From Candidatus Poribacteria bacterium (GTDB taxonomy: Bacteria; Poribacteria; WGA-4E; PCPOR2b): 64,000 nt of DNA. A model generated the notes under the pieces. That model did no database searches and had not been told where the DNA came from. It saw nothing but the letters and a program-made list of their open reading frames with translations. The stretch lies in contig OY762266.1 of assembly GCA_963665285.1 (NCBI GenBank), positions 992,001 to 1,056,000 of the forward strand, written 5' to 3'. Made by a program: the position numbers and the translations under genes. This document shows, piece after piece, positions 12,695 through 14,542 of the stretch. Each line of letters begins with the position of its first letter. The first letter of the stretch is position 1.

Positions 12695-14542
12695 ATGACC
12701 GACATGTCAGTTTATAAAACGACAGTCCGGCGGAAGGCTGGCAGGATTGGCGAACTCCACTTGCAACGTAACGGGATAGCACTCCAACTATTATCAACGC
12801 CTATTCTGTACCCCGTTCTTTCATTCATGACTAGCACTAGTACAAACGGGGGTGGGATATGGAAATACCTGCTGAAAGATGTTATGAGACACGACGTGCC
12901 GATCCTCTCGCAGGTATTGCATTTCCTCGATTTCAATCTCACAAGCAAAAACATCAAGTATTGGCGAGAGCAGCCGATGCGTGAGCGTTACCGAGACACC
13001 AACGGTCCCTTTGATGCTCCGATGTTTTTGGATTCAGGTGGGTTCAAACTGCTTTACAACGCTGGACTGTCCCTCTCGGAATTCGGTATCCGTAAGGAGA
13101 CAGAGGCGGATGATATTCTGGCGTTTCAACTCGACTGCGGTGGAGACATCATCGCCTCCTTAGATTATCCACTGCCCCCCGGTCTCGTCCGCTCCGAAGC
13201 AGAAATCCGCATGGATCGGAGCCTTCAGAATGCATTTCGGGTTGCAGAGCGGCTCGCAGAGATGGACAATCCGCCTTACCTGTATATCTGCTGTCATGGA
13301 CAATCTAGAGAAGATATTCAAAACTATGTCAATCAGGTTTTTGACCGGCTGACGGGGGTACTCCCCTCCTTCGGACTTGCAGTCGGCTCGCTCGTACCAT
13401 TGCGGGGCGACAACGACTCGGAGGTGCTATCACGGATATGCGGTGTACTCGACGCCATTCCTGAGTCAGCACGAGATCTGACGCCTATCCACGCCTTCGG
13501 GATCTCTGGCAACCTAACCCCGATACTCGCTTACATGGGGGTCGATAGTTTTGACAGCACAAGTTATATTCAAGCAGCCCGCAGTCAGGCTTATTCACAT
13601 CCGGAGACAGGGAAGAAACTCAAGATTCTGGAGTTAGATTCAATGGAGTGTACTTGCCGTGTTTGCCGGGAAACCTCTCTCGAGGAGATGCAACAGGCAT
13701 TCATGGAGGCGAAAAGCTATCAACGCACCTCAACGGGACAATATAAGAGCTACTACTACGCAAAAATCGCGCTCCACAATTTTGAGATGGAAGCCGAAAC
13801 CCTTAAACATATGGTGGATGCAATTGAAGCCGACAACTCGCTTGAAGCACTAGTTGATCACGCCTCAAAGGCACGTGGCGTTCGAGAAGCAGTCAACTGG
13901 CTAATTGAAAACAGGGATGAATTTGCAGCGAAGATGTCAAAAACCGTTGTCCCAGTCCCCAAACGTGCCGCAGCTCAACCCGCGCAGCAAACCCTTTCAC
14001 TGAACTACACTCCCGACTCATTTTCAATCCCGCCAGATTATCAGCCACCTCCAGAAAAACGGATTCTTTTGACAATCCCCTGTGCTGGAAAGAAGCCGTA
14101 TTCCCTATCGCGCACCCATTCTATTGTGAAAACCAAACTCGACACAGCGTTTGGTGAGGATCACCGGTTCATCCACAAAATCACCCTTTCGGGACTTTAT
14201 GGTCCTGTCCCCGAAGAATTTGAATCGGAGGAGGCGGTAGTCCACTACGATTTTCAACTGTTACCCCGCAACACCACCCAGATTAAACTCGGTGCAGATC
14301 GGTTCAACGCCTATCTTGATAAACATAGACGACACTACGAACTAATTGTCGGTTACGCTACGAGTAACGCCTACCGCAAGGTCTTGCAACTAGTCCAAAA
14401 ACATCATCAGGATTTTATCTTGCTGCCAACCAAACCAAAACAGAAGCGGCTTTCGGAGTTTTTTCGACATATCCACCTCGACGAACTTATAGAGGTATTG
14501 TCCAGCGTTTTGGACGAAGAAACGGGACAGGATTCCAATTGA
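12695..14542 (+). CDS. tRNA-guanine transglycosylase (TGT/DpdA)-family protein fused to a C-terminal ArcS-like (DUF5591-type) domain
   Basis: GRIGEL...STP N-terminus, FLDSGGF, LDYP, IHAFG, DSFDST, CTCRVC...H zinc motif. C-terminal ILLTIPCAGKKPYSLSRTH...LYGPVPEEFE. Confidence 0.85.
   Translation: MTDMSVYKTTVRRKAGRIGELHLQRNGIALQLLSTPILYPVLSFMTSTSTNGGGIWKYLLKDVMRHDVPILSQVLHFLDFNLTSKNIKYWREQPMRERYRDTNGPFDAPMFLDSGGFKLLYNAGLSLSEFGIRKETEADDILAFQLDCGGDIIASLDYPLPPGLVRSEAEIRMDRSLQNAFRVAERLAEMDNPPYLYICCHGQSREDIQNYVNQVFDRLTGVLPSFGLAVGSLVPLRGDNDSEVLSRICGVLDAIPESARDLTPIHAFGISGNLTPILAYMGVDSFDSTSYIQAARSQAYSHPETGKKLKILELDSMECTCRVCRETSLEEMQQAFMEAKSYQRTSTGQYKSYYYAKIALHNFEMEAETLKHMVDAIEADNSLEALVDHASKARGVREAVNWLIENRDEFAAKMSKTVVPVPKRAAAQPAQQTLSLNYTPDSFSIPPDYQPPPEKRILLTIPCAGKKPYSLSRTHSIVKTKLDTAFGEDHRFIHKITLSGLYGPVPEEFESEEAVVHYDFQLLPRNTTQIKLGADRFNAYLDKHRRHYELIVGYATSNAYRKVLQLVQKHHQDFILLPTKPKQKRLSEFFRHIHLDELIEVLSSVLDEETGQDSN

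Follow-up and report, generated by a model that had tools for sequence, protein, structure and literature searches.

A transglycosylase fused to an archaeosine-synthase core as a putative DNA-modifying enzyme of Poribacteria, cyanobacteria, Chloroflexota, and haloarchaea

In the literature examined, only dPreQ0 and dADG are reported from cellular DNA, and the action of ArcS2 on DNA is known only from phages. In E. coli, DpdA2 and ArcS2 of phage nt-1 brought dPreQ0 from 926 to 0 and from 1607 to 11 per million and gave only 4-7 dG+ per million (PMC10516641). The archaeosine synthase ArcS of T. kodakarensis transfers lysine and does so even to a bare preQ0 nucleoside, with no need of a tRNA fold, while RaSEA is required to reach archaeosine; the lysine adduct is not exchanged back, and the available text does not describe DNA among its substrates (PMC11298593). 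dPreQ0-Lys is described as a tRNA intermediate and, in the portions of the literature examined, is not reported as a DNA base. TGT or GNAT-TGT proteins also occur in BREX-related systems (PMC12839542). We found no description of an active TGT fused to DUF5591 in the available parts of PMC6884629, PMC12839542, PMC12137116, PMC12707154, bioRxiv 2026.04.15.718813, 2025.10.29.685425, and 2025.04.06.647259, nor in the other accessible literature on deazaguanine and TGT enzymes, where DUF5591 was named in one work only; this is provisional, as reviews or supplements may mention the family.

Here we describe such a fusion, encoded in a 64,000-nucleotide stretch of a Candidatus Poribacteria genome (the window; Table 1). 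We lean towards the view that it acts on DNA, where it would first insert preQ0 and then attach an amine to the preQ0 nitrile. An earlier note on this DNA had proposed a TGT with an intact catalytic core and an ArcS-like domain on one chain, and both parts were recovered above the Pfam cut-offs: TGT at residues 106-381 (E 7.7e-16, 58.5 bits, cut-off 26.3) and DUF5591 at residues 449-575 (E 1.5e-13, 51.3 bits, cut-off 26). As the note had also remarked, the Pfam search gave no PUA domain. Runs X1 and X4 each yielded a contig that covers the locus (11200-14944) without a difference; one of the two may be the source sample itself. Scans for promoters and terminators gave matches at chance level only.

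Table 1. Features at the fusion locus, in window positions
Feature	Position	Strand	Remarks
124-aa phage-like gene (phrog_13596)	11814..12188	+	Atlas family leads under 0.9
QueD-like T-fold gene	12307..12693	+	128 aa; ends 1 base before the fusion
Fused transglycosylase-ArcS-core gene	12695..14542	+	615 aa, single ORF
TGT barrel and zinc subdomain	12695..13879	+	aa 1-395
Ala/Pro/Gln-rich linker	13940..14014	+	aa 416-440; length varies across homologues
ArcS core (DUF5591 domain)	14015..14521	+	aa 441-609; no C2/PUA after it
Motif PCx3KPYx2Sx2H	14078-14119	+	inside the ArcS core of the fusion
68-aa Cys-rich ORF	14539..14745	+	overlaps the stop of the fusion

Among the NCBIfam models, only that of the TGT superfamily (TIGR00449) exceeded its cut-off (60.8 vs 47.6). 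The best partial matches were ArcS (94.8 vs a cut-off of 440) and arcTGT (TgtA; 82.5 vs 350); queuosine Tgt reached 20.1 of the required 306.75 and the DpdA model NF041059 19.1 of 200, and the PADLOC DpdA profile matched at E 6.6e-5. We then turned to structure, with an AlphaFold model built from a 43-sequence alignment (pLDDT 93.5, pTM 0.91, with a dip to 61 in the linker at 421-430) that was compared against 48,161 representative chains; the C-terminal domain folded alone without an alignment had a pLDDT of 40 and was discarded. The comparison with ArcTGT, ArcS, and DpdA that the earlier note had suggested placed the barrel (residues 3-417) closest to P. horikoshii arcTGT 1iq8 (Z 37.6, rmsd 2.6, 345 aligned), with lower scores for bTGT 3unt (Z 31.9), DpdA 7ui4 (Z 22.9, rmsd 3.0, 297 aligned), and Cap10 9ntn (Z 18.7). 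Residues 441-609 matched 2q07 (AF0587; Z 16.4, rmsd 2.4, 136 aligned), which we take to be an ArcS fragment, so that structure and Pfam both assign the C-terminal domain to DUF5591/ArcS. The model has strands at 6-41, and DpdA 7ui4 aligns only from residue 34.

That the predicted barrel lies nearer to arcTGT and bTGT than to DpdA would count against a DNA substrate. It also lends weight, together with the retained N-terminal strands and the partial matches to ArcS and TgtA, to a different reading that we consider unlikely: a compact enzyme for tRNA or another RNA that unites the arcTGT and ArcS activities in one chain and would place preQ0-Lys or archaeosine in bacterial RNA, at G15 or elsewhere. 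The chain has no C2/PUA domains, however, which argues against such an enzyme.

The motifs on which the earlier note had relied (DSGGF, LDYP, HAFG, DSFDS, CxCxxC...H, and PC..KPYS.S.xH) were all located in the 615-aa product. They supply three Asp residues, D113 (DSGGF; 13031-33), D157 (LDYP), and D287 (DSFDS; 13553-55), the zinc ligands C319/C321/C324/H361, the HAFG motif at H266, and a complete ArcS motif, P462-C463...K467-P468-Y469...S472...H475. Thus, the Asp triad (the equivalents of Asp102/Asp156/Asp280) and the CxCx2C...H zinc site of the TGT superfamily are present, and the Asp residues align with those of arcTGT, bTGT, and DpdA, as the note's reading had implied. From the alignment, the acid/base, base-reading, and nucleophile roles would fall to D113, S114, D157, and D287, with D287 as the putative nucleophile and D113 as the putative acid/base; the numbering of the TGT and DpdA catalytic residues was taken from PMC5699537 and PMC10164549. 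The catalytic residues were invariant in 43 of 43 aligned fusion homologues (29-76% identity). The catalytic Asp was absent from the canonical haloarchaeal ArcS barrels (four of four aligned), and the fusion is therefore not an ArcS.

The pocket loop, G231-S-L-V-P-L236, shares its Val-Pro-bulky tail with GAVVPL/GGVVPL of arcTGT, with Ser in place of the second Gly, and it is unlike the preQ1-type GGLxxG loop of bTGT with its Gln203. In arcTGT and DpdA, this tail has been tied to preQ0 specificity (PMC10164549). The fusion further carries a His-Gly pair, H201-G202, in which H201 corresponds to His181 of S. Montevideo DpdA; Gln occupies this place in 11 of 11 rows (4 arcTGT and 7 bTGT-like). We regard H201 as suggestive but not diagnostic, since the NF041059 DpdAs aligned from the Poribacteria phylum also carry Gln (4/4).

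To place the barrel, we used a tree of 34 of 88 rows, from which ArcS, fragments, long-branch rows, and near-copies had been left out; a quick 73-row tree had not resolved the deep order. The fusions came out as a single group (90/93) with a stand-alone haloarchaeal TGT as its neighbor (90/84), and the fusion, the haloarchaeal second TGT, and DpdA grouped at 97/93. Given the length of the DpdA branch (2.2), attraction may account for its position beside the fusion. A clade of the fusion with arcTGT was rejected (p-AU 0.0056), which speaks against the tRNA enzyme. The phylogeny called for in the earlier note, run here for the barrel, thus separates the fusion clade from arcTGT and joins it to DpdA, subject to the long branch. 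The note had named the protein a bacterial TGT; an active-type TGT core stands, but the barrel is a lineage of its own, found also in haloarchaea, rather than bacterial Tgt with an added domain.

We next asked how widely the fusion occurs. A word search returned 446 relatives among 8000 scored, and both Pfam domains were present in all 120 listed, one of which was named Ca. Poribacteria; an assembly or annotation artefact was rejected on this ground and on that of the two matching contigs. A 50%-cluster library gave 99 proteins at E <= 1e-30, and 125 of 130 candidate stretches in species-representative genomes were confirmed, the best 80 of these 125 comprising 51 Poribacteria-titled entries, 2 uncultured bacteria, 11 cyanobacteria, 10 Chloroflexota, and 6 haloarchaea. 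Harmless carriers in culture include Thermogemmatispora carboxidivorans PM5, Planktothrix paucivesiculata PCC 9631, Microseira wollei NIES-4236, and Halorubrum glutamatedens. The window's phylum has the fusion in 54 of 176 genomes (E <= 1e-60), a count that includes close kin and not independent cases, distributed by family as 24/28, 9/11, 19/112, and 0/7. A few genomes of this phylum carry two copies, and full-length copies lie on two haloarchaeal plasmids. The patchy spread, the occasional double copies, and the plasmid carriage count for a DNA enzyme, and the plasmid copies weigh against a tRNA enzyme. Long retention at fixed loci in the first two families also fits a housekeeping role, and stable, orphan-like retention in Poribacteria is a point in favor of the RNA reading.

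The window's genome holds its own Tgt, QueC, a tandem QueD, QueF, and a QueE-like match besides the fusion, which is therefore not the queuosine Tgt. Likewise, bTGT was kept in 5/5 other bacterial carriers tested, and arcTGT with ArcS in 5/5 haloarchaeal carriers. The fusion is thus a conserved family that is extra to the normal tRNA enzymes in all 10 outside genomes tested. That haloarchaeal carriers already own arcTGT and ArcS, with RaSEA in the one tested, counts against a tRNA enzyme.

A phage origin was rejected: the fusion barrel had no match among 50,697 phage records, and among 118 candidate stretches on viral contigs two matched the fusion, both weakly and over the barrel only. Distant TGT-DUF5591 fusions of 504-638 aa have an altered region around the nucleophile (P0200, P0207, P0208, P0220, P0221, P0223, and P0267), and one further protein (P0192) joins a barrel of the fusion family to a Schlafen AlbA_2 domain in place of DUF5591.

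Outside Poribacteria, we named representative neighbors at the fusion loci with Pfam and PADLOC. A helicase of 1300-1400 aa gave DpdJ as its best PADLOC match (E 5.5e-72), and a second neighbor was DpdK-like (E 7.5e-9). Others were QueC, QueE, QueD, YhhQ/Vut_1, DUF366, nucleoside 2-deoxyribosyltransferase, GmrSD_N with HEPN, DISARM DrmAB, and a DUF6884-TGT-ATPase trio. DNA-defence neighbors were found at 22 of 27 loci with queries drawn from the same loci; of the five loci without one, two were shorter than 2 kb. A large helicase of the DpdJ/DruE/DrmA type was present at 12/27 (in one case only as a fragment), GmrSD at 10/27, a DpdK-like gene at 4/27, and preQ0 synthesis or uptake genes at 7/27, with DpdJ/DpdK-type genes near the fusion in Chloroflexota, cyanobacterial, and haloarchaeal loci. 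As a control, we ran PADLOC in the same 10 genomes on two sets of ORFs no more than 5 kb away, 88 around the fusion and 98 (some in the wrong frame) around the housekeeping tgt/arcTGT; the genomes were chosen after the locus maps were known and hence not blind. In this non-blind set, any match at E <= 1e-15 occurred at 9/10 fusion loci vs 3/10 housekeeping loci, and matches of the DpdJ/DruE/GmrSD-type/HerA kinds at 8/10 vs 0/10. This defence-island context also tells against a tRNA enzyme.

Might the enzyme instead act on invaders, tagging or excising bases of phage DNA (e.g., adding lysine to phage dPreQ0, or marking DNA for a modification-dependent nuclease) rather than marking self? Of 11 cyanobacterial loci, 9 have GmrSD_N and HEPN genes after the fusion; restriction of deazaguanine-modified phages has been described for a two-gene DUF262 system (PMC12137116), and type IV CBASS has put the TGT fold to another use (bioRxiv 2025.04.06.647259). 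However, linked QueCDE, QueC, and YhhQ point to base supply and insertion, the sole QueC found in one Chloroflexota genome lies in the fusion's island, the fusion keeps the zinc site that Cap10 lacks, and the GmrSD pair occurs in 2 of the phylum's 176 genomes vs 54 for the fusion. We therefore hold an invader-directed role to be quite improbable, and on the same counts GmrSD_N with HEPN was rejected as a partner of the fusion in that phylum. The window's genome has one such pair far from the fusion (G000:C1:3857081-3858861), 52% and 40% identical to the cyanobacterial neighbors.

The haloarchaeal trio of DUF6884, a stand-alone 415-aa TGT, and a GHKL ATPase (L114:11979-15217, L115, L118, L119, and L170) often lies beside the fusion; its TGT is sister to the fusion's barrel, making the trio a candidate for a further DNA transglycosylase subfamily. 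A Haladaptatus plasmid combines, within 19 kb, a helicase, a PLD protein, DUF6884, a stand-alone TGT, an ATPase, and two fusion genes. Separately, Nostoc plasmids carry a short TGT (L172:7797-8732) beside dnaB, AlkB, MT-A70, and cytosine methyltransferase genes.

The case is weaker at the Poribacteria loci. None of 53 had DpdJ/K or GmrSD neighbors; at 17 the gene immediately upstream was an N6/N4 methyltransferase or was MutH-like or PD-(D/E)xK-like, and a QueD-like gene, whole or as a remnant, accompanied 11. The window's genome gave no DpdJ-, DpdK-, YhhQ-, or DUF366-like match and no DndB/DpdB-family match, dpdB and dpdC were not found beside the window's fusion, and no CD-NTase/Cap9 of type IV CBASS was found among its neighbors. 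The DNA argument for the window's copy therefore runs by homology. This copy sits inside a conserved block before argD. The QueD-like gene ahead of it has R-EKP-HNH instead of CxxxHGH and lacks the catalytic Cys and the DH pair; the Cys is absent from 7/7 aligned orthologues, the NCBIfam score is 35 bits against a cut-off of 89.25, and DpdL likewise has no catalytic Cys. Of 41 related genomes, 16 keep it at nearly its full length, namely 15 fusion carriers and one where it stands beside canonical DpdA. We rejected it as an obligate partner, since it has decayed beside an intact fusion in six genomes and survives in three where the fusion is deleted. The 124-aa phage-like gene, by its motif presumably PD-(D/E)xK-like, occurs in 3 of the 41 genomes, always within about 0.5 kb of the fusion and at two chromosomal sites. 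The 68-aa ORF is probably background, because it persists at a locus where the fusion is deleted.

Other features of these genomes bear mention. A repeat of ~140 bp (window 14915-15060; 33 blastn matches in the genome) separates the operon from argD. Three genes downstream of the fusion lies a lysine 2,3-aminomutase-like (KamA-like) radical SAM gene (17104-18165), conserved only in the 10 loci of the synteny block. Elsewhere in the window's genome, a broken DpdA remnant (G000:C1:1125717-1126383) precedes a small gene that resembles the one behind the intact DpdA of genome G004; this is a decayed Dpd locus. One Poribacteria family has canonical DpdA with an N-terminal, weakly DpdC-like DUF6884 domain (L163:1483-3249, minus strand; L165; L167), where the frames that stay open in the 14 matches listed span 584-642 aa, and family f2 has a divergent TGT without the zinc cysteines beside a BrxD-like ATPase (L035:1261-2463 and L036:1081-2286).

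How would the fused enzyme work on DNA? Judging from the genes present, the queuosine pathway of the host would supply preQ0, or linked QueCDE/YhhQ would do so in some islands. The barrel would excise guanine through D287 and insert preQ0 with D113 as acid/base; the residues are in place, and DNA is the presumed substrate. By analogy with ArcS, the DUF5591 domain would then add an amine to the nitrile, giving the lysine amidine (dPreQ0-Lys) or dG+, and such an adduct would also block back-exchange. In cyanobacteria, Chloroflexota, and haloarchaea, the mark may serve as the self-tag of a Dpd-like restriction island, and in Poribacteria, the window included, the gene may persist largely as an orphan modifier, as orphan methyltransferases do. 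The earlier suggestion that one chain may insert and derivatise a base fits the domains and residues, and its idea that DNA may be the substrate gains support from neighborhoods and tree; archaeosine is only one possible product.

The partner needed for archaeosine bears on which product forms. RaSEA (TIGR01210) had no match in the window's 99% complete genome, was above cut-off in none of four bacterial genomes, and was present in the one haloarchaeon (1/5 overall). A conserved radical SAM partner was rejected, as a motif scan of ORFs at 80 loci met with nothing besides QueE, two singletons, and, at 10 loci, the KamA-like gene. Taken together, these results make a lysine adduct a plausible end product, and the likely second reaction in bacteria is the addition of lysine or ammonia without RaSEA. 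The fusion may thus end at the lysine adduct rather than at archaeosine, with dG+, dADG, and dCDG also possible. An unmonitored (lysine) adduct could likewise have formed in the nt-1 experiment, by our own analysis and not that of the authors of PMC10516641.

It is also conceivable, though rather unlikely in our view, that preQ0 is inserted into DNA and the C-terminal domain either hydrolyses the nitrile to dADG/dCDG, replacing DpdC, or is non-catalytic. STSV-2 has DpdA and ArcS2 with the motif intact yet carries dCDG (PMC10516641), an amidohydrolase role has been proposed for phage ArcS (PMC6884629), and the missing RaSEA of the four bacterial genomes fits hydrolysis as well. Among 53 diverse fusions, 37 have the ArcS motif in its strict form and 16 in a degenerate form, which suits hydrolysis or loss of activity; however, it is intact in the window's fusion, and all five motifs occur together in 106/112 close homologues of at least 600 aa. 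Moreover, four haloarchaeal fusion loci hold a separate, weakly DpdC-like DUF6884 gene, in some islands with the second TGT, which suggests a different job for the fused DUF5591 domain.

Returning to amine addition, the boldest form of the proposal is one that we put forward tentatively and think more doubtful than the general reading: a single ATP- and DpdB-independent enzyme would write dPreQ0-Lys in bacterial and archaeal chromosomes, a base that would label self for a Dpd-like restriction system not yet described and, in Poribacteria, serve as an orphan epigenetic mark retained over long periods. The family predicts that a single protein makes an amidine-type base (dG+ or the lysine adduct) in the cellular genomes of four lineages. 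If true, this would clarify what ArcS2 makes without RaSEA and whether DpdB is dispensable for a cellular DNA transglycosylase, and it would provide a one-gene means of putting an amine handle into DNA. Action on tRNA instead would mean archaeosine-type chemistry in bacteria, which would also be notable.

Overall, the fusion is a real, conserved variant of the 7-deazaguanine modification enzymes and a member of none of their defined families. Bacterial queuosine Tgt has the same barrel, Asp triad, and zinc site but another pocket loop. arcTGT (1iq8) is the closest solved fold and has the same preQ0-type pocket, but it carries Gln and a C1-C2-PUA tail, whereas the fusion has His, no C2/PUA, an attached ArcS core, and a separate clade. 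ArcS itself also runs from a TGT-like domain to C1/DUF5591 with PCx3KPYx2Sx2H (PMC11298593), but its barrel is dead, it carries C2/PUA domains, and its partner is RaSEA, whereas the fusion barrel keeps the Asp triad and no C2/PUA follows. Cap10 of type IV CBASS has no zinc site and stands in an operon with a CD-NTase and Cap9 (bioRxiv 2025.04.06.647259), whereas the fusion has the zinc ligands. The bacterial Dpd system (DpdA-K; PMC10164549, PMC5699537) has in common with the fusion the three Asp residues, the His-Gly pair, the preQ0-type loop, and the zinc site, and with the fusion loci of other phyla the DpdJ-, DpdK-, and preQ0-gene neighbors. DpdA, however, has no N-terminal beta lid and an enlarged Ins8 helical bundle, whereas the N-terminal strands of the fusion model, in which no 70-residue bundle is evident, suggest that the fusion differs in this respect; Dpd loci have dpdB and dpdC beside dpdA, whereas the DpdB family had no match in 4/5 fusion genomes and the fusion carries the ArcS core in place of DpdC. 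The phage DpdA2 and ArcS2 of Vibrio phage nt-1 (Cui et al. 2023, PMC10516641) likewise join a transglycosylase and a DUF5591 core with the same motif in action on DNA; ArcS2 is stand-alone and phage-borne, whereas the window's enzyme is fused and cellular. Most likely, the fusion works like this phage pair of DpdA and ArcS2.
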